DNA of 62,574 bases, the filler included, from Rhabdomonas costata (lineage: Eukaryota): the NCBI GenBank assembly GCA_019059605.1. It is 36 parts of 36 records of this genome, joined end to end, with 100 filler letters (N's around TTAATTAATTAA, not from the genome) between each part and the next. Parts side by side here need not be neighbours in the genome. Positions count along the whole stretch, not along the records: positions 5,221 to 6,862 come from JAHMHO010011453.1; 35 more parts are not named here. The stretch is one strand, 5' to 3'. Positions within the stretch are counted from its first letter, which is position 1; every line of letters starts with the position of its first letter. The position numbers and the translations under genes were made by a program. The notes below the pieces were generated by a model that did no database searches, was not told the origin of the DNA, and saw only the letters and a program-made list of their open reading frames with translations. Positions 4,701 through 62,574 of the stretch are shown here, one piece after another.

Positions 4701-5221
4701 GACGGATCGCAAAGAGCAACGACACAACCAGCTTTCATACCCGCAGTGGCCAAGACTTCCGCCTCGTCGATCTTATACACAAGCCCTGCACACGAAACGA
4801 AAGTGCCAATGCAAACTCTCATCCCAAGCTAGGTCCAAGGAATATTGATTTGAGACAGAAACGAAGAAAAACCTCGAACATGGATCTTCCCGCCGTGGCT
4901 TTTTCATTGGCATGGGTTAAGCTCCTTTTGCTTGCACGTGGCCCAATGTCAAACACATCTTTTTACGGAGCTCGTCGATCAGCAATAGATGCACAACACC
5001 GTACTCATCGAGGCACATACCGACGCTGAGTTCCGGAAGACAAGAGAAGCCCGCGATGACGGGCTTCGAGCGGTAGTCCGGAGCCTCCACACTGCCGGTC
5101 TGGCACTCCACCGCGGCCTTNNNNNNNNNNNNNNNNNNNNNNNNNNNNNNNNNNNNNNNNNNNNTTAATTAATTAANNNNNNNNNNNNNNNNNNNNNNNN
5201 NNNNNNNNNNNNNNNNNNNNA

Positions 5222-6862
5222 AAGCAAAGCCAATCAGCCTCAAAGCCCAACCGAGCCGGAGAGCAAGCCGAAACGCCTCGGGCGAAGCGAGAGTTCGTTC
5301 TGGACGTGCGGCCGCTCCCCATTCCCGAGCCGTACGACAAGCACGACCCGCACCCCTCCCGCAACCGGCGGCACCAGGACGAGTGGACCTGGCCCGCCTG
5401 GAGAGAGTGGCTTCTGGCCCTTGCTGGTCGCAAGTGGAACAAGAGCTCCATTCGAAAGGTGCTGGCCCTCAGAGACGCAGACCCTGCCAACGGTACCACG
5501 GACTTCAAAGACACCACCAAGCAGTGGAATGTCAAGGGCTGGATTTACGCCCTCTTCCACTTCTCTTCGGGCCGCTGGTACGTCGGGCAGACGGTGCGGA
5601 ATTACTGGGTCCGCGCCAAGGAGCATTGGGACCAGCGCAAACAGCTCACCGATGTCTTGCACAATGCGCTTGCCAATGAGACCGCCCCTTTCTCCTATGC
5701 AGTCTTTCCCCTGGAAAAGATCGATGGGACCCTGTACCAGTGCGAATCGTGGGACGCCACCAAGAAAGCGTTTAAGCACTACGCAGATCCCCGAGAGAGA
5801 TACTGGGTGGGCCGCCTCAACACGTTGTGGCCCCACGGCTTCAATTCGGCGGTCCCGGGGAGACCCGTCTCGGCCTGGGTGATGCGACGGTGGCGCGTCC
5901 CCCAGAGAGACTGTATGGAGCTGGTACCAGAAGAGGATGACGAAGTGGGGCGACAAGTCCAGACCTGGCTCAACCGGCTGAAGTCGGAGGGGGCAGCGGC
6001 CCTGCAGGAGCTGAGGTCCTGGAACAAAGACAAGCTGCGAGAGACGCTTGATTGGATTCAAGCGAACGTGCCAGCCAGGGAGAGGAAGGCGAACTTGATC
6101 TCGGTGGAAACGGCCATCATCGACGAACTCAAGGGGCGCCGATCTCCTCCCAGGAACAGGCACTTCCTGAAGTTCGATTTCGGCCACAAGGACGCCTGTC
6201 ACCTTCTCCTCCGCAATGTCCTGCGCGACCCGGATGTATACATAAAACATCCAGAACCTGAGGTCGGGGCGGCCATCATGGTTTGCGACAGGTTTCGGCC
6301 GCAGTGGCAGGCCATCCTCAGCAACTATGCCAAGGCCGCCCAGGAACTGGACCTTTCCAAAGCTCTGAAAGATGATCTGAAAGATTGCAAGTGCAGCAGC
6401 TGCCTGTTCAAGCCCGAGGCGGCCTGCCTCAATGAGTTCGGCCACGTCAACACCATTGACACCAACAACCTCAAGTGGCCCTATCTCCGGACGATAGCAG
6501 AGAGGGGCCGCAAGTTCCGCCTTCAGGGGGATATCGACCAAGTCTTCTCGGACCTGAAGATCTCCCTGGACTCTTACGTCAGCTGGTGCGCTCGGAGTAA
6601 CCCCACGCGTCTCACAAAGCTCGAGGACTGGGCGGATGCGGTATACGCAGCTTGCAAGAAGAACTGGGCCAGAAAGGCGCAAGATGGCACTCACCGCCCT
6701 GAGCCGCAAGGTTTCCCTGGCTTAGGGGCTGCAATTCGGGAAGCGCATGAGCATCTGGTTTTCCTGCTGGATGACAGGGCTCCCCATGGCATGGTGGTCG
6801 TCTGCAAGCGCTGGTACCAACAAGAAATGGCCAGGTACCTCTCGGACAACAAGGTCTTCGAG
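5222..6862 (+). mobile_element. Penelope-like retroelement ORF (partial): N-terminal GIY-YIG endonuclease followed by the start of the RT region (Naiad/Chlamys-type order)
   Basis: Intronless frame open across the whole contig. GIY-YIG motifs GWIY...WYVGQT..NYWVRAKEH and RERYWVGRLNTLWPHGFN (about 5537-5845), then CKCSSC...FGHV...LRTIAERGRKFR, then LDDRAPHGMVVVCKRWY...LSDNKVFE, which matches the PLE pre-RT DK(G/A) motif region. Confidence 0.8.
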
Positions 6863-9280
6863 NNNNNNNNNNNNNNNNNNNNNNNNNNNNNNNNNNNNNN
6901 NNNNNNTTAATTAATTAANNNNNNNNNNNNNNNNNNNNNNNNNNNNNNNNNNNNNNNNNNNNGGTGTGGTGTGGGTAGAAGTCGTAAAGCAATGGTTAGC
7001 CAGGAAACTTGGCAAGAACGTACGCAAGTGCAGGTGAAAGGTGGAAAACGAGGCGAAGAGAGGAGAATCTAGTTGAATTGGTACGGAGAAGGTGGGATGG
7101 AGAGGCCAGTTGAGACTGGCACTAGAAGGAAGGGACAAGTAGGGCCAACCCTCGCGACAATTGACGTTTGCGGTGTTGGAGGGGGAGGCGGTATAGTTCG
7201 AGGCTACCCGTCTAACCATACCGGAAGTAGCGCTTGCCTGTGGCGGAAAAATGAGGAGCATGTAGTGATATTTTGAACATGGAAAAGGATTACTCTAAAA
7301 ATGGCAGCAACCTCGAAATCTAGACTGAAGTGCAAGGGGGTTTGGAAAACTGCGCTTCGGGCGAGTTAGCCAACCAAAATTGCTGCTGGCTAAGGAATAC
7401 CATGTTACCAGGAGATGGACGAATGAGTGGGACTGCATTGGTTTTGGGGCAAAGGAGGAAAGGCTGCAACCACAGTTAAGGGCTAATACCCCCCTTCTAG
7501 TTGAATTGCAGCCAAGATAAAGGAGTTCTTCATACAAGGTCAATGCCACCCGCCCCAAGCCGAGTTGCCAGCGCAAGCAGACTGCTGATCAGCTGTGTCT
7601 TCAGAGTAGAACTGAGGTGTTGTCCCACCCGCTAGGCTGGGCAAGGTCTTCACCCGCGCGGCATGGGCTTCACAAGTCCTTCACAAGGGTCTCGAACATA
7701 GAACGGGTGCACGAAGGATACAAGGAGACGAAGGGCCGAAAACAGCAGAGCTTGTTTACCTGGAATGCACTCGGGCGGAACCCCCAGCGTGAGGGGACAG
7801 GCACACGAACCAAAACCACCACACTTCCACAGAGTTTCAGAAGACACGAAAGGGGCATAATGGGGCTCAACAGCGTAAAACATCTTTCTTTCTTTTGGCG
7901 TTTTTGCACAGCGGATATACAACTGATACAACTGGCCTGATGCTTAGACAGAACTGTCAAGCGGCAGCACGTACCACACACAACGATCACAAGGCATTGT
8001 TTTGGTGGCACGCATCACACACACACACACAAGAAGAAACGTTGCAGAGAGCGAAAAAGAAATAAGCTATAGTAATCGTACATACATCAACATCAACATG
8101 ATGAGGGGTCTAGATGCCAGAAAGGGACGCACCGATGCAGGGGAAGGTTTCGGGTACCTTAAAGGTCTCTGTTTGCCCGGAAACTTCTTGCAGCCCTTGT
8201 ATGTGTGCGCACACGAGGAAGGTCTGCAGGAAAAGGAGAAGGTAGCAATATGATAATACATAGACGGCGTATCGAATTTTGGCAGAGATAGAGAGAGGCG
8301 TGTGCGTGTGTGCTACGCAGCCGATGAACGAAAACCCAGGAGAACGATATTGCCGAAAAAACGAGCAGCGCTCTCCCGTTCCCAACGCAGGGTTAAGTTC
8401 TTCACTTCGCACTGCCACTCTTCTACCCTGACCAAGACCAAAGGTATAAAAAAAGAGAGGAAGCGGGAAGGTGCACAGGGGAGACAATGCATTATGCCGG
8501 ATTCCAAAAAGAGGCATGCAAGTGGTCCAAGACACAAGCTCAGTCAAGTACCAACCAAGAACGCCTAGATTCGGAAAACACGCCACAGCACCACACACCA
8601 CACNNNNNNNNNNNNNNNNNNNNNNNNNNNNNNNNNNNNNNNNNNNNTTAATTAATTAANNNNNNNNNNNNNNNNNNNNNNNNNNNNNNNNNNNNNNNNN
8701 NNNGGGTGTGTGGCTGTGCAGGCTCGGTATGCAGGCCTGCAAAGGTCCAAAAAGTGCTCCCCATGCTTTGGAAATGCGGAAAGTCGAAAATGTCCTAAGA
8801 AGGGTCCCAAATACCCACAAAATGCCCCAGATCTCGGCGTAGAGAACGACTCCGAGGCCAGGAAGCGGCCAACCAACTCATCTGTGGAGTGCCACCATCC
8901 CACCAAATATGCGCTCCAACCCTTGCTCAAGGTATGAGGTACATGTTAGGTCTCCGGCTCCGCTCCAGCTCCAGTCCGGTCCAGGGAGCCTGGATGAGGT
9001 CACCCAGTCTTTACGAGTGAGGTTCAAGCCTCGACTTCAATGAGGTACCCCTGCCCCCATTCTTGAGGGAGCCCGGACGCCCTGCACGCCTCCCAGGCCC
9101 GTATGTGAAGGCTAGATGGGTGCCTGGGGACCCCCCCCCCTGAACACCAAAAAGAGAAATACTTGTCAAGCTTATAATTGCATTCCAGGGGAACGTGGCA
9201 TTCAGGGGTTTTGGTTCAGGCCGCCGCGCAAGCCCATACGCGAGTGCAAGTAACCTGTGCAGAAAGTCCCCGAGAGTCTA

Positions 9281-26126: not shown

Positions 26127-27767
26127 GTGTTTGCCTTTGCGGATCCGATCACCGATCTTCTCTCCGAACCTCTGATGGCGTACTTAGGATTGTCTTCGGA
26201 AGCTGATTCGTCTGTTGTGGAACAGGTGTGGCCCCATTTGTTAGCCTTTGTGGCTGTGGTTCTTCAAATGAAGGCATTGGGTTGGAAGCAGTCTTTGGGG
26301 CACCTCCCATCCACCAGGCAGCTCGAGTTGCTTCCTGGTCGTACGGCTGAGATCGCCCCTCTCTTGAGCACTTCCGATGATGCAGAGCCCACAGCCGTCG
26401 ATATTGGAGGTCCAGTCTGGAATTCGACAGTGGACGAGCCCACCATCTATGAAGTGAAAATTGCTGAGGTTTTGTGTCGGTTTGGCTCTGTGGCCATGCT
26501 TTTGGCACTTCTTCTGGCGGCCAAAGCGATGTACTTGAGGGTTTGGGGAACTGTTCTGTTTTTCCTCGCCGGGGCTTTGGCGATGGTTGGGCAGAAAGCC
26601 CTTGCGAAACCACTTCCATGGGAGCTGCTTCAGGGCGTCCTGTCGCTGCTGTTTATCCTGCAGTTTGCGCTTCTTCTGGGGCCTCCCGTGTTCTGGCAAG
26701 GTGGATTGCCGTTCTTTCCCAACACTGCCCTGGCATGCTCGTTCTGGAAGCAATACTACGAATATCTTTGCCTGGAGCCTGCCACTGCTCAGCTTTGGAT
26801 ATTCTTTCTCGCCGTCCAGCTTTGTGGGTGCTGCCGCCAAGCCATACAACACGCCAGTTCATTGGGTCGGGAGAGCTCCTCGGGCGGGCTTTCCTCGACA
26901 ATGAGACGCCTGCACAAGGAAATCCAAGCGTGCCGGAAGCGGTACGATCTCGGAGGTGTGCCCGCTCTGCAGCATCTTCTCCCGCCTCCGGACGCTCCAA
27001 ACTACCTGCTGCAAACTCCACGCCCCCTTTTCACCTACCTCCGCTTTCGGTTGCCGCCTTACTTCACCCTGGCCCTGATTTTTGCGGTTTGTGTGTTCGC
27101 GTCAGCCTCCACGCTGTCGATACTTCACTTGATTGTGCTCAGCATCGCGCTTTTCCTAACTCACTTTGGAGGTGAGCTGACCTGGCAGGGGAACCGTTGG
27201 TGGGCAGGGGTTTTGTGGCTCTGGTTCGGCCTCGGCCTACTGGAAAGCATGCTCACGGTTCCTGTTGTGGCCGACTTCGTCGTCGACCACAGCGTGTTTG
27301 ACTTGGTGGGTGTGCGGGTATTCTCCACCAAGCAGTGGTTTTATATTCTAATTCTCGTTCTGGTGTACCTTCAGTATTTGGTATACGATGACTTCTTGTT
27401 TGTTTTTGTTCTTCATCACCAACTTAATCATCTTCTCGAAGCCCAAGACCGAAGCAAGCAGAACGTGATCCTGCGCCAGCAGCTGCTTCAGGACATGAAG
27501 AGCCGCGAGGATCAACTTAAACGGGACCGCAAGCGCAGACTTCATTTCATTCGGAGCTGCCATCGTCAGAGCTTAGAGTTTCCAGGCCGCTCTCGTTCCG
27601 AATCTGCTGGTGTCACTCCCCGGGATACAACTCGTCAGGCACTGGATGGTCGTGCAACTCCTCGGTCGGGTCCCATTTACCCCGCTTTGGGCCCGCTGGA
27701 GACTTTGACTGCAGAACGTGACGTGCCCACAGCTGCTCGGGTTCCACCGGAAGCCTTGCCCACCACC
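26127..27767 (+). CDS. Piezo-like mechanosensitive channel, internal fragment (blade TM units plus beam region)
   Basis: Intronless frame across the contig with about 10 hydrophobic helices. QFALLLGPP, YFTLALIF...LTHFGGEL...WW and VYLQYLVY followed by a charged helix (EDQLKRDRKRRLHFIR) match the Piezo pre-beam/beam arrangement. Confidence 0.7.
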
Positions 27768-47365: not shown

Positions 47366-48471
47366 TCAGTGGTCATGGAGCTGAGGGAGAAGATCAATCT
47401 TCCTTCCTTCCTTCACGATGTAGAAGCTCGTCGGCCACATTAGGTCGGTGTACACACTGGAGTACGCTGAAGACTCCTGCGAAAGATAATATTGTTATAC
47501 AGTTATCCCATGTTCGCTACCTTGATGCCGGACGCTGATTTTTCAAAAAAAAAAATTGGGGGGGGGTCCAACGCTGTTTCAAAGTGAGGAGTTGTAGTTA
47601 ATTAAAACTAAAAATAATAATAATAAAAGTAATTAAACTCGGTGTCAGCTCGCGTCTAACAACAACTCACTCAACAATAGTCGTCGAAAAAAGCCCAAAA
47701 ATCAAAACGGGAGCGTCTCTCAGGAGCCATATCTTCAGAGGACGGGGTCCTTTGGTATGTACAGTGGACCTCCCGAAACGCTGGAAATCGTTCCTTGCAC
47801 CCTCGCTGGTACCCACGTGCGCCTTGGCAGCCCTTTCCTTTAAGTTTTAATAATGCCGCCTCTTTCTCCAACGCAACGGTTGAGGATTGATCGACGTCAC
47901 CCACAACGCTGTGTATGTATGAGCGTCACTGCAATCAACGAAGTGTCACTTTGCAAAGTCATTCTTTCAATCGCGAACAAACCAATCCTATCTAAATATG
48001 AGAGGGCATTGGAACCTTTGCACTTTTTGGGGACCTTTAAAAGCCTTCATTACCGCAAGAGGAAAGAAGTCAATTGTATGTTCCCAACCACATTCGTACA
48101 GATGTTAGCTTGAGACAACAACACTCGCACTCGCGCCAGCCATACCTTCCCCGTGGGGACGCCGCCCGCGCCTTGGTGGACCTGCACCCCGACGCACACC
48201 GCGTAGTCCGCCTTCTCTGTGTGTACGGTGGCGGCGCACAGCGCCTCGAGTTGCTCCAAGATGATCGCCGCGGTAGTCTTCGTGATCTCCAGCAGGTCCG
48301 GGATCTTCCCGTACGTCAGGTGTTCTGTGACTTTCTGCTTCACAAGGGAGAACTCCAGGTCCATCGGGTCCAGGACGTACGACACCCGCCCCGACTTCAG
48401 CTCGCTGCGCACCGCACAAAGCGCCCCGCAGGCCGAGGACTTCGAAGGCCGACCCGCGCGCAAGCAATCCC
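47366..48471 (-). CDS. LCIB/LCIC-like theta-class carbonic anhydrase, C-terminal part
   Basis: Exon 48471-48146 (RAGRPSKSSACGAL...DPMDLEFSLVKQ...PDLLEITK...ADYAVCVGVQVH) and exon 47476-47366 (DLMWPTSFYIVKEGRKIDLLPQLHDH*). ACGAL and DYAVxxGxQxH are LCIB-family motifs. Confidence 0.85.
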
Positions 48472-50495
48472 CTGAAAGAAAAAGAATGCAGCGTAACATT
48501 GCTCTAGTCTCCTCCAAATGACGAAAACGAATCCGTCAGGTGCTTCACCAGGGTGAAGATGAAAGACGCACGAAAAGAAAGAAGACAAATACACAAATAC
48601 ACACATCATCCCACCAGGCATCGGCATCAGCTGACGAATCTAGCTACAACAAACACCTNNNNNNNNNNNNNNNNNNNNNNNNNNNNNNNNNNNNNNNNNN
48701 NNTTAATTAATTAANNNNNNNNNNNNNNNNNNNNNNNNNNNNNNNNNNNNNNNNNNNNAAAAAGGGGGAAGGGGGTTGAGGAAGGCCTATAAACAGGATT
48801 GTTGCCGAGAGCGGGAAGGTGAATTGAACAGTTTACCAGCACAGCCAAAAAAGAAAGAGAAAGAAATGAGAATTCACAAAGAGCACTGCGTAAAAGTAAC
48901 AAATATAGTGAGGTGAGGCCTTGAGAGGACTTCTGACCCCGTGCAGACCCCTGCACCAAGAAAGCCAGGAGAATAAGCTTCTCGGGAAACCGACTTTCCA
49001 GGGGAGAAAGACTCCAACGTTCCTTCTGTGGCGTCTTCTGTATTTGCTAATTCCGCGGGTATCACTGATAAAAGCGCAAGTATCAGTCTCAGAGAAGTTC
49101 TCAAGTGGGCATGGAGCAACACATCATCCCCCCCTCACCCTCCACGTGCAGGGGATGAGCAGTTCCCGCGATGGGTTTTCTGGGTGTTTCCCACAACCGT
49201 TTTATATCTTCACATACTCAAAGGATACCCACACGCACCCCTCCCGCCCTCCCCACGTAATGTCCCTGATCCCCGTGAGCACTACCCTTCGGCTGCGAGC
49301 TGGATATTCGTGCCTGTGGTTGCTCATACCGTGTCCTCGGACAAAACGGAAGGTTTACGAGAATCTTTTTGTCCCCACCCACATTACAACTACCCTGAAA
49401 CCGGGGAAAGCGTGTGCTCACTTCTGCTCGCTAACGCAACACTCAAGTTCACGGGCATCCAGTGCCTCACGTTCCCCCCACAGATCTCGGAGTGGCGTTG
49501 TGCGCAGCTCTGCTACCTACCTACGCGCTGAGCTCATCACCTGAATGTCAAGCACTTTCCTCTCAGAGTTCCCACTCACCCTCTCCTGGTCGTCGCAGAG
49601 TTCCTGGAGGGTCCGATGTGACGAAGCAGCTGCGGTTCCATGGGACAGTTAAGCTGGCGACCGTCTCGCAGGACGACGACTGGGGTGCGGCGCCCATTCT
49701 CCGCACCTGAGAGGCAGACCCTTCTTCGTTTTCGAGTGGGGGTAACCTTTCTTGGCTCCAAACGCTGCTCTGGGTGCCTCTCTGAATCGTCTTGATGCCT
49801 TCGAGGACCACGGTGACTAAACGTACAGAGTCCATTTGGTGCGCGTGTTCGGACTCGGGGGAGGTCAGCCGCTCCAATCAACCGCCCCCTCCCCCCTCTT
49901 CCTGGGAGTGGGACAGTCAGTGACACTTGGCCTGCTTCTTTGTGTTTTGGTTCCTGTGCCTGTCCCTCACCTCGCGAGATCTGCCCGTGCGCCTTCCAAG
50001 CAAACCTGTTCTGTTCTGCGTTATGGCTGAACAGAACCTGACTCCCGTCTCCTTCCAGACCTTTCTGTTAGATATTGACCCTCTTAACCATCTCTCAGCT
50101 CCCCTTTCACTTCTTGCTTCCGTCCTTCCAACAAAATTCTCCTCTCTGATATCACTGGTTTCCCCTTGCATCCGCAATTGCCTATGTGTCAAACAGCCGA
50201 AGGAAGGATAAAGAAAACCTTCAGTGGTCTGGGGATGCTTTTTAAACGCGGCAGCGATGCTGAATTTTGACTCGAGCGATCTGAAAACGCTATATACTCC
50301 TTCCACTGAGCGGAGTCTCACATGATGCACCGCAACGCAGAGGCACTGTGTGTGCAGTGCAACAATCATAAGGCAAAAAGCGCATAACGACAACANNNNN
50401 NNNNNNNNNNNNNNNNNNNNNNNNNNNNNNNNNNNNNNNTTAATTAATTAANNNNNNNNNNNNNNNNNNNNNNNNNNNNNNNNNNNNNNNNNNNN

Positions 50496-52405: not shown

Positions 52406-52609
52406 ACAACAATGCCGAGAACGCAGTGTGTTGCAGCGGGTTTTGGGTTATTGCGGTGCAGGTTGAGCTGTTCTGTGTTGTTGGCCTCTCACATAGTTTA
52501 TTTAACTCATTGGTCTTCTTAACCTTCGCATAAATAGCTTTATGTGATGCAGGCAAGTTCATGGTAGTCGTATCATTGCTCTGCGTAACTTGGGGGACTA
52601 CATTTTCAA

Positions 52610-53875
52610 GGCCCCTCTCTACGGAATCGAGGGCTGGGGTGAGGGTTCTGGACATGTGTAGTGCCCCTGGTTCTAAAACTCAGCAGCTGATTGACTGTCA
52701 CTCCACCACCCTGTCCTGCCTCCTGGCAGCAGAGAACGACCCCCACCGCGCCTGCCTGATTCTCCCGGGTACGCTGACCCGCGTCCCAGAGCCCGCTCTG
52801 GTCTGCTTTGCCGGCAACGCTTCAAGGCTGCCCTCCTCCACAGGGCCCTTCACTCACATTCTGGCGGATGTGCCGTGCAGTGGAGATGGCACTCTGCGGA
52901 AGATCCCCCGGCTTCGGTCGCAGTGGAGGTACCGTGACGGAGTGGAGCTATTCGCGCAGCAGCGGAGGCTTCTACTGCGCGGGCTGCATCTCCTGGGTGC
53001 GGGAGGGAGGCTGGTGTATTCAACATGCACGTTTGACCCGGTGCAGAACGAGGCCGTGGTCGCTGCGGCTGTTACTCGGGCGAAGTATGCCACGAAAGGG
53101 GCAGAAGGCGGGGTAGTTGGACGTCTTGGCCACGATATGCAATGTATTTTTGGGAGGGAGGTGCCAAACGGTTTAACCAAAACATGCCCGCCCCCACTAA
53201 TTTGTCACTGTTACCGTTGATGGTCTCGAAAATTTCCAGGCAACGAACCCGTCTCCACTGGCCGCTCCGCGGCTGGCCTCAGCACACTGAAATAAACGTC
53301 TCGTTCCCGTCCACCAAAGCCCAACAAAGCTATACCAGTGGTTTCAACCAGGCAAGCGCAATCCAGAAAGACTCAGAAGAGACACAGTTAGGCTGATGCC
53401 ATCTCTCCGTTTTTAACGTTGAACCGTTGAAGCGTCACCCCACCCATCGGAGTCTTTGGGTGACTCAGATTTGCGTGGAAAAGGGTAGCGGGCTGTTTGT
53501 TGTGGTAAGTTTTTTATTTGGGGCTCCAATTGCTGCTCTTCATTTGTTTAGCTCTCGAGACCCGCTCTTCCGGTACCATTTGGTGGACTGTCTGCCTTTG
53601 CTTCCTCCCGGCCTGCGGTACGATCGGGGACTGTGCACCTGGCAGGTGCCTTTTCCCTGTGATGGCGAACTTCGGGCTGAGAACGAGCTGTGGCGGATGG
53701 CACACAGCTTTGCCGAGGTTGGGGACAAAAACCATGCCGCTGGGATCATTCGAGAGGATATGTTTCCAGCCTTTTCCAGCCCCGATTGCAGCCAGCAAGC
53801 CCCGGTAGATCTCTCTATTTGCGTCCGTCTGCTTCCCCACCGCAGCGACACCGGGGGCTTCTTCATAGTCGCAAT
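52610..53875 (+). CDS. NOL1/NOP2/Sun-family RNA m5C methyltransferase (NSUN2/Trm4-like), partial
   Basis: Exon ~52610-53084 (VLDMCSAPGSKTQQL, ILADVPCSGDGTLRK, RLVYSTCTFDPVQNEAVV), phase-2 GT-AG intron, exon 53552-53875 (CVRLLPHRSDTGGFFIVA). Both catalytic Cys motifs (PCSG, TC) are present. Confidence 0.92.
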
Positions 53876-61267: not shown

Positions 61268-61821
61268 GTATGGCATCCCGAGAGAAAGGAGTACGATAGG
61301 TCGCGTGCCTTTTTGTTTCCAGTTTTCGGCGGGAGGCCTCGAAGGTCATGTTGGGAATCGACTTTGCACCGAACTTTGGAAGGGACTATAGGTGTTCCCT
61401 CACTCCCGCTCTCTCCAACCAAGAAACAGCTTGCCGACCTCTTTTTCTGAGACTCTCCTCTCTTGGCCCTCACGAGTCCCTTTGTCGGGGCCTTTTTTAA
61501 TCCCTCCCTTTTGTCTCTGAACCACTCACTTGTCGCTGTAGATGGTTTGCCGGGTGGTGGTGGTCTCCTCTTAGCTCCTGTGTATCAATGATTGTTCTCG
61601 AGGATTGCAGTCCGGTTGTGGTTGAGTGATTAGGCGCACCTCCTGGTTACCCGCGTGGGGAGGTCGGTTTTATGAACAAAAAGACTCCAGGCCTGCATGG
61701 GCTTAGCCCTCTTAACACCTCTGTTGCCTGGATCCCTCCCACTGGGTTCACCGGAAGCGCCCCTCCTGCAGTTGTGGTTGCAAATTCATCTCCTCCCTTC
61801 CTTCACTCCCCGCGTTTTAAG

Positions 61822-62400
61822 GTGAACGCCATCTCGGACGCCCTGCGGAGCGGGATCACCGAGGCCGACCTGGCCGGGTGCACGGTGTACGTCACCCTGG
61901 AGCCCTGCTGCCACACCGGCCGTACCCCACCGTGCACCTCCGCTCTGTTGCGAATAAGAGCGGCCCGGGTGGTGGCAGCCGTGCAGGACCCAGACCCTCG
62001 GGTTGCGGGGAAGGGCCTTGAGCTGCTGCAGCGCTCGGGAGTCTCTGTTGCTGTGGGTACCTTTTCCCCTGCAACCCCTCCCTCCTCCTTTCACCGTTCT
62101 TGCATATTTTGGGATGTCATAATCCTTGGTTCCTTGGCGAGGGCCGCATATGAAAAAGGAAACGTATCTCTTAAATCCTTTCTCTTCCGTTTTCTCTTCT
62201 CCCGCACAGGTGTGTGCGCCGACGCTGCGCGGGCCTCGCTGGCGCCTTACCTGCACCACCGCCGGACGGGGCTGCCGTATGTCGTGCTGAAGGTGGCGCT
62301 GAGCGTCGACAGCGCTATCGCGTGTGCCGACGGCACCTCCCAGTGGATTAGTGGCCCTGAGGCACGGGCCCATTCCCACGGCATCCGAGCCGCCTCCCAG
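61822..62400 (+). CDS. ribD: RibD riboflavin biosynthesis deaminase/reductase, partial
   Basis: Exon 61822-62056 (TVYVTLEPCCHTGRTPPC...DPDPRVAGKGL), phase-1 GT-AG intron, exon 62210-62400 (GLPYVVLKVALSVD...DGTSQWISGPEARAHSHGIRAASQ). Confidence 0.93.
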
Positions 62401-62574
62401 GCACCCCCCCCTACCCCTCACTCATCAAACCAGAACACCCTCACACTCCACACACTGGGGAAGAATTTTGAGTGCTGGTTCTCTGCTCATGTGCGCGAGC
62501 CAGTTCATGGCACCTCCCATTCGGGCTTGACCCTCATTTCAATCATTGAAATGAAAGTCACAAGAACCCACCAC

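Follow-up and report, generated by a model that had tools for sequence, protein, structure and literature searches.

Does a short contig of Rhabdomonas costata that encodes a GIY-YIG nuclease, and that ends before any reverse transcriptase (RT), belong to a Penelope-like element (PLE), and if so, to which kind? The contig lies at 5221-6862 of a stretch of 62,574 nucleotides from assembly GCA_019059605.1, and the whole of this stretch is called the window here. The contig is very probably an internal piece of a PLE that carries its endonuclease (EN) at the N-terminus, as the Naiad and Chlamys elements do, and its anatomy is Chlamys-like. Such elements have been known since 2021, and what the contig adds is a variant lineage: a genuine result, though a modest one.

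The window is a pseudo-molecule made of 36 unrelated contigs of 1637-1655 bp each, whose GC contents range from 0.255 to 0.595. They are joined by spacers of the pattern N44-TTAATTAATTAA-N44: 70 N-runs of exactly 44 bases are paired around the 12-mer TTAATTAATTAA, and the pattern recurs every ~1.74 kb. The element is on contig 4 of 36 (1642 bp, plus strand), all of which is coding sequence of the element, between the spacers identified by their N-run pairs at 5121-5220 and 6863-6962. The first spacer is outside the element, and the expected RT would be beyond the contig end at the second. Because the window joins unrelated contigs, adjacency within it has no biological meaning, and nothing can be read from it on flanks, termini or neighbours.

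The open reading frame and the state of the copy

One frame of the contig, at 5222-6862 on the plus strand, consists of 547 sense codons without a stop, just as the original prediction had counted. The other five frames contain 11, 12, 3, 11, and 18 stops. When the contig was shuffled 1000 times, the longest open stretch in any frame had a mean of 153 codons and a maximum of 342. The GC content of the open reading frame (ORF) at codon positions 1, 2, and 3 is 0.600, 0.433, and 0.753, which is a coding signature. An antisense frame of 493 codons and the +2 frame had no Pfam match, and we take them to be shadow frames of a gene rich in GC at the third codon position (GC3). The start and the end of the ORF coincide with the ends of the contig, and thus it is cut on both sides by the assembly and these are not the termini of the element. 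In-frame ATGs are found at codons 221, 232, 353, 524, and 536. None of them is upstream of the conserved N-terminal block described below, so the ORF must start off the contig. The encoded fragment (P0001) is collinear to its last residue with four longer homologues (P0002-P0005), and it is read as the N-terminal half of an EN-RT polyprotein.

Judged from its sequence, the window copy looks undecayed. It agrees with P0002-P0005 at 178 of the 187 positions where all four are identical, and the nine mismatches are mostly conservative, such as K/R. One of the nine, A394C, creates the third cysteine of a linker that had been described as 'CxCxxC...GHV'. This cysteine is unconserved in the relatives; all the motifs quoted with it were found at their places. 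Two further claims are not supported. The element had been called intact-looking, which does not fit a copy with both ends missing and with no in-frame ATG ahead of the conserved block. It had also been called recently active. Since the 36 contigs contain one fragment and no further copy of it, and the best database identity to the window protein is 68%, recent activity cannot be shown.

Domains and motifs of the window protein

All the features of the protein are encoded on the plus strand. The first is a tryptophan-rich conserved block at 5303-5437 (D28...PEPYDKH...W72), which was delimited by invariant columns in a five-sequence alignment and belongs to no known family. Residues 1-50 were modelled as disordered according to the profile of the predicted local distance difference test (pLDDT).

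The GIY-YIG endonuclease domain follows at 5534-5851 (residues 105-210), and it was recognised by Pfam, by a family profile against PDB, and by comparison of an AlphaFold2 model with PDB. Its sequence reads GWIY...YVGQT at residues 106-124 and RERYWVGRLNTLWPHGFN at residues 191-208. The landmarks of the nuclease are GIY (107-109), YVG (120-122), R131, H135, E192, and N208, and Y109, Y120, R131, H135, E192, and N208 are invariant in the five-sequence alignment. There is no cysteine in residues 1-173, and thus the window nuclease has neither the CCHH motif nor an upstream CX2-5CxxC. A PDB sequence search with the window fragment gave no match. The family profile matched the homing endonuclease I-TevI (1ln0, E 0.035), with GIY, YVG, R, E, and N aligned. 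The AlphaFold2 model of the window fragment was built with a 62-row alignment and has a mean pLDDT of 87, being low only at residues 1-50 and 222-231. Against PDB it matched 1ln0_B with a probability of 1.00, a TM-score of 0.80 (normalised to the target), and a root-mean-square deviation of 2.3 Å over 111 columns. The nuclease therefore models as a GIY-YIG fold like that of I-TevI, with all catalytic residues present.

Between the nuclease and the CxC motif is a helical middle region at 5942-6376 (residues 241-385), where pLDDT is mostly above 90. The sole hint for this region is a weak winged-helix match to Pfam HTH_29 at residues 244-265 (E 0.068), and residues 240-547 of the model have no convincing fold match in PDB. 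The CxC motif at 6386-6448 (C389-x-C391...G407-H408-V409; CKCSSC...GHV at residues 389-409) was identified by conservation and corresponds to the linker that is diagnostic of N-terminal-EN PLEs (PMC8557442); C389 and C391 are conserved in at least 90% of the 62 rows. Alignment with relatives placed a GxKF/Y motif at 6506-6520 (G429-R-K431-F-R433, within RGRKFR at residues 428-433). Motif scoring in relatives placed the region of the pre-RT 'DK' motif, LVFLLDDRAPHGMVVVCKR, at 6755-6811, and it includes DDRAPHGMVVVCK at residues 517-529. In the window protein this motif reads D-R, and the contig ends 25 codons past it.

Relatives carrying the reverse transcriptase

The four longer homologues have 1017-1159 amino acids (aa) and are 60, 57, 46, and 46% identical to the window protein, with 95-99% query cover. 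In all four, the part collinear with the fragment is followed in frame by an RT with the motifs YNYGIWKP..KFRFIAG, DF.TMYT, Q..GMPMG..AAPQ.ANL, and RYIDD. Pfam detected GIY-YIG in three of the four. A profile of the five sequences was then searched against 1.84 billion protein representatives, and it matched 2640 of them at E ≤ 1e-3, 1234 at ≤ 1e-10, and 308 at ≤ 1e-30. Many matches are fragments; a large and fragmentary family is as expected for transposons, and the relatives are mostly fragments on contigs of 1-8 kb. Among the matches listed, 46 have at least 850 aa. EN and RT are both spanned by 32 of these, with EN first in 32/32, and EN after RT was found in 0/46. Thus the order proposed in the original prediction, EN before RT in a PLE, is borne out by four of four longer homologues and by every spanning relative, the RT itself being outside the contig.

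The RT of the relatives resembles that of telomerase. The family profile matched 8bgj among PDB RTs (E 0.0045). A structural model was made of P0003, a member of the eight-row clade of the window protein; the ORF of L001, a contig described below, is almost identical to it. The model has a pLDDT of 81 and a predicted TM-score (pTM) of 0.73, and it contains extra helices between RT motifs A and B. It had 73 PDB matches at E ≤ 0.001; telomerase RTs took the first 15 places (E from 9.1e-8), and group II intron RTs and viral polymerases came after them. This fits the published relationship in which PLE RTs and telomerase RTs are sister groups (PMC8557442). The spacing between motifs A and B was 68-107 aa in 11 relatives, a range uncalibrated against canonical PLEs.

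Some relatives carry other domains. Six proteins (P0104, P0145, P0135, P0088, P0030, and P0109) have accessory domains C-terminal to the RT: a ubiquitin C-terminal hydrolase (UCH) in four proteins (E 2e-9 to 3e-15), DnaJ in two, and a weak OTU match. A Josephin-like protease has been reported in one Chlamys element of Chara (PMC8557442), and judging by these matches, deubiquitinase-type additions may be recurrent in the clade. One predicted protein, P0037 (2811 aa), has a kinesin motor domain (E 4e-68) upstream of GIY-YIG and RT; it is probably a gene model running from a host gene into an inserted element.

A relative in tandem arrangement

A scan of genome contigs from bacteria and archaea yielded L001, a full-length relative on a contig of 5462 bp. 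It is 57% identical to the window protein, and its record is labelled as an uncultured Terracidiphilus bin. Its two ends are diverged copies of each other: positions 1-240 and 5247-5462 match at 96-98% identity across ~215 bp, apart from a 24-bp indel. By this repeat, L001 is a head-to-tail arrangement of a ~5.2-kb unit, which is within the size range of Chlamys units, 3.3-8.2 kb (PMC8557442), and the arrangement matches the partial tandems typical of PLEs (PMC8557442). An Rfam search of L001 gave nothing at E ≤ 1.

The whole tandem unit of L001 (1-5462) appears to be stop-free in one phase. The frames flanking a 100-N gap read the adjoining 55-nt repeat in the same phase, and the frame continues past the tandem junction and joins the EN-RT frame; it has 0 stops, compared with 4-14 in the other forward frames. 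In the metadata of PMC8557442, some Chlamys families are listed as 'no stop codon' and 'tandem repeats at 3' end'. L001 also encodes a 2A-like peptide, GDVHPNPGP, at 4858-4884 on its plus strand. It was seen once, downstream of the RT, and the nuclease of the next unit is ~330 codons further on. The 2A consensus is D(V/I)ExNPGP, and the L001 peptide has His for Glu. We found no paper linking Penelope-like elements with NPGP. Another NPGP, in P0109 (GEASNPGP), was dismissed as chance, since by a rough estimate about one NPGP is expected in the proteins scanned.

Comparison with known elements

N-terminal-EN PLEs, which comprise Naiad and Chlamys, are marked by the position of EN, the CxC motif, GxKF/Y, DK(G/A), and an insertion in the RT fingers, and they are generally without canonical hammerheads (PMC8557442). 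Chlamys elements lack CCHH and CX2-5CxxC and have kept R, H, E, and N of the nuclease (PMC8557442). They have been reported from green algae and Physarum (PMC8557442) and from Ectocarpus in 2025 (PMC12477816). The window protein shares with them the absence of both CCHH and CX2-5CxxC, the retention of R, H, E, and N, and the CxC and GxKF motifs that follow. Its relatives share EN ahead of RT in one ORF, and L001 shares the ~5.2-kb unit and the tandem arrangement; the A-B spacing is long in the 11 relatives given above, and Rfam showed no hammerhead in L001. In Chlamys-1_meVir and Chlamys-1_cAtm, the first 400 residues as printed are, by eye, collinear with the window protein, with the common pattern (V/W)IY-x9-11-YVG.T...R...H...PLE...RE..W...L...P.G(F/Y)N; Chlamys-1_cAtm also has C.C...HV...G.KFR. 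The window copy differs from Chlamys in two ways: its DK motif has Arg for Lys, and its N-terminal part carries a PEP[YF]DKH / GWIY signature that is conserved.

The Naiads, which are found in animals, have the same domain order, CxC, and GxKF/Y, whereas CCHH in the core, the upstream CX2-5CxxC, and DKA are Naiad features of which none is present in the window protein; in addition, the window frame has no in-frame TGA. The core cysteine motif of Naiads has the form C-x2-C. Between GIY and YVG, C-x2-C was found in 0/49 relatives shown, and two D-K rows have adjacent CC. For the Naiad CCHH, the text of PMC8557442 gives only a pair of cysteines within the GIY-YIG core, together with the upstream CX2-5CxxC finger. 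The canonical C-terminal-EN PLEs (Penelope/Poseidon, Neptune, and Nematis) share a telomerase-related RT, GIY-YIG, GxKF, the DK region upstream of the RT, and insertion in tandem or pseudo-LTR (long terminal repeat) structures. However, their domain order is the reverse, CCHH is absent from the window protein, and no hammerhead was found in contig 4 or in L001. The nuclease resembles I-TevI (PDB 1ln0 and 1mk0) in its fold and its catalytic residues (Tyr, Tyr, Arg, Glu, and Asn), at ~20% identity, but I-TevI is a homing enzyme of a phage intron, has a DNA-binding tail of its own, and carries no RT. It had also been suggested that the termini may carry ribozymes or SECIS (selenocysteine insertion sequence) elements. 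This idea finds no hold on a contig without termini and without in-frame TGA: Rfam gave no row at gathering score on the window, and only three chance-level rows for long non-coding RNAs and CRISPR (E 0.9-9) on contig 4.

Several points weigh against the placement among N-terminal-EN PLEs. The contig holds no RT, start codon, termini or flanks, and since it has no RT, the membership of the window copy rests on homologues that are only 46-68% identical. No second copy of the element is found in the 36 contigs of the window. Both domains fall short of the Pfam curated cut-offs: GIY-YIG on the window fragment scored 13.2 bits (E 0.11) against a cut-off of 22.6, and RVT_1 scored 19.7-24.2 bits (E 3e-5 to 7e-4) against 29.6 in all four longer homologues. 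I-TevI is the only convincing PDB match of the window model, with a whole-chain E of only 0.025, and no match reached E ≤ 0.001. The names of the relatives are uninformative, the few that are named being 'hypothetical protein', and two relatives are in bacterial bins, namely L001 and the D-K relative P0181, whose record is labelled Mucilaginibacter. PLE matches in bacterial records have been seen as eukaryotic contaminants (PMC8557442), and L001 and P0181 are most likely mis-binned eukaryotic contigs. The likeness to Chlamys is one of motifs and of comparison by eye, and the trees below hold no named Naiad, Chlamys, Neptune or Penelope reference. Finally, Arg519 is at the Lys position of the DK motif (D518-R519), in an unchanged context, LVF..D[KR]..H....CK..Y. 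As D-R stands where D-K would be found, the window copy is filed as a variant lineage and not as a typical member.

The D-R variant

The replacement of DK by DR, which the original prediction had pointed out, is borne out and characterises a clade. At the DK position, 43 of 75 rows have D-K, 31 have D-R, and one has another pair. The preceding residue also differs: the D-K rows read VDK (31), ADK (4), IDK (3), TDK (3), GDK (1), and MDK (1), and the D-R rows read DDR (21), EDR (9), and NDR (1).

D-R and D-K rows were separated in two trees that were made with the motif columns removed. In the tree of the region from the nuclease to DK (50 rows, IQ-TREE quick, LG+G4), 27 D-K rows formed one side of a branch with a Shimodaira-Hasegawa-like approximate likelihood ratio test (SH-aLRT) support of 96, and P0079, a long-branched D-K row, attached beside the other side. 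The window protein was in an eight-row group (SH-aLRT 98) with P0003, P0158, P0165, P0161, P0002, P0157, and P0159. In the tree of the RT region (67 rows, window protein absent), 42 D-K rows formed one side of a branch with SH-aLRT 94. Both trees are unrooted, and therefore 'sister' and 'nested' are indistinguishable for D-R and D-K. In these trees the D-R group is a well-separated lineage, and the close relatives in it have no informative names. The D-R variant is unmentioned in the abstract and sections 5, 6, 9, and 12 of PMC8557442, and YDKH, FDKH, and GWIY are in none of the reference ORFs in its File S4 (first 400 residues per row).

Other contigs of the window

Frames outside contig 4 were scanned with Pfam, 20 at first and then 65 more from the 150 longest of 173. 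These scans named only RibD, RsmB/F, LCIB, and PP2C, of which the first three are pieces of host-type genes. An exon of an LCIB/C-type carbonic anhydrase is at 48053-48535 on the minus strand (E 1e-16), and its GC3 of 0.745 is close to the 0.753 of the element ORF. LCIB proteins typically occur in algae that have carbon-concentrating mechanisms, so this piece, the only pointer to a lineage, is a hint of an alga; a protein-atlas query with the exon added nothing on the host. An RsmB/F methyltransferase exon is at 52534-53217 on the plus strand (E 9e-27). A RibD-like frame (deaminase and reductase) at 61630-62574 on the plus strand is uninterrupted for 315 codons and runs off the window end. The contig at 50496-52135 has a GC content of 0.255, and its PP2C-like exons (YAIYDGHGG, LGDSRCV, and DHKP; GC3 0.20, compared with 0.60-0.75 in coding pieces elsewhere in the window) are split by AT-rich sequence; it is probably from another organism than most of the window. 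A second fully open contig, at 26127-27767 on the plus strand, has 547 codons, and the hydrophobic sequence that they encode resembles a membrane protein, has no Pfam match, and is unrelated to the PLE.

The source of the element had been described as a probable euglenozoan, which the window sequence does not support. Spliced-leader motifs of Euglena and of dinoflagellates had 0 matches each in the 62-kb window, although these are weak tests.

Mechanism and alternative explanations

Contig 4 encodes the front half of one polyprotein: the tryptophan-rich block, a GIY-YIG domain with a complete catalytic set, the helical region, CxC, GxKF, and the D-R pre-RT motif. In the relatives only, the same frame goes on into a telomerase-like RT, whose motifs A and B appear to be separated by a long insertion, and then into a thumb. 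If the element behaves as established PLE biology suggests, its RNA would be translated, the GIY-YIG domain would nick chromosomal DNA, and the RT would copy the RNA into the target from the freed 3'-OH by target-primed reverse transcription. Partial tandem copies (pseudo-LTRs) would often be left behind.

The contig might instead come from a co-sequenced organism and not from the main genome of the assembly, which we consider unlikely. The window is indeed of mixed composition, with the contig GC range given above, the low-GC3 PP2C contig, and one contig with the uninterrupted RibD-like frame, and relatives of the element are found in bins labelled as bacteria. However, the GC3 of the ORF is in the range of the other coding pieces of the window (0.60-0.745), and the question concerns only the host, leaving the identity of the element unchanged. 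The frame might also be a domesticated or single-copy host gene of PLE origin that is no longer mobile. The single copy in 36 contigs, the intact frame with its conserved residues retained, and the absence from the collection of any near-identical protein would suit such a gene. Nevertheless, its relatives are numerous, diverse, and mostly fragments on short contigs, L001 is arranged in tandem like a transposon, and for judging copy number, a sample of 62 kb in 1.6-kb contigs is much too small. Domestication is thus quite improbable.

PLEs form tandems (PMC8557442), and the L001 unit is open in one phase across its junction, so that the nuclease of a canonical C-terminal-EN PLE could in principle only seem to be ahead of the RT of the next copy. 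This is very improbable, since EN, CxC, GxKF, D-R, and RT form one conserved and confidently modelled chain in P0003, RT followed by EN was seen in none of the long relatives listed, and in L001 the RT thumb and the EN that follows are ~1.8 kb apart, with no EN in between. Moreover, the CCHH motif that the window nuclease lacks is described for all canonical PLE nucleases (PMC8557442). It is hardly credible that the contig encodes a GIY-YIG homing endonuclease that stands alone, or some other GIY-YIG protein outside the PLEs. I-TevI, the best solved match, is a homing enzyme, a language-model protein atlas lists only viral and bacterial GIY-YIG clusters (all below 0.9), and Chlamys nucleases fall diffusely between PLE and homing nucleases (PMC8557442). 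But the nuclease makes up only ~105 of the 547 residues, and the rest is the CxC/GxKF/D-R module, which leads into a telomerase-like RT in all spanning relatives.

We therefore keep the contig among N-terminal-EN PLEs. A wider proposal is possible but doubtful: the window copy and its D-R relatives might be an undescribed deep branch of these elements, with Arg in the DK motif and a tryptophan-rich PEP[YF]DKH leader, in an algal or protist lineage outside those reported. Translation might perhaps read through tandem units that have no stop, and a 2A-like peptide that causes ribosome skipping might then free the EN-RT protein; the latter idea is suggested by the single GDVHPNPGP in L001.

Significance

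Elements of this type are easily overlooked or mislabelled, since neither EN nor RT reaches the curated cut-offs of Pfam and bacterial bins include relatives. It was not until 2021 that N-terminal-EN PLEs were recognised, and how far they extend beyond animals and the green lineage is still being charted; the Ectocarpus study of 2025 is presented as their first report from the TSAR supergroup (PMC12477816). A D-R branch would extend the known map of N-terminal-EN PLEs, and it would supply a natural Lys-to-Arg variant of a poorly understood motif of PLE and telomerase-like RTs.

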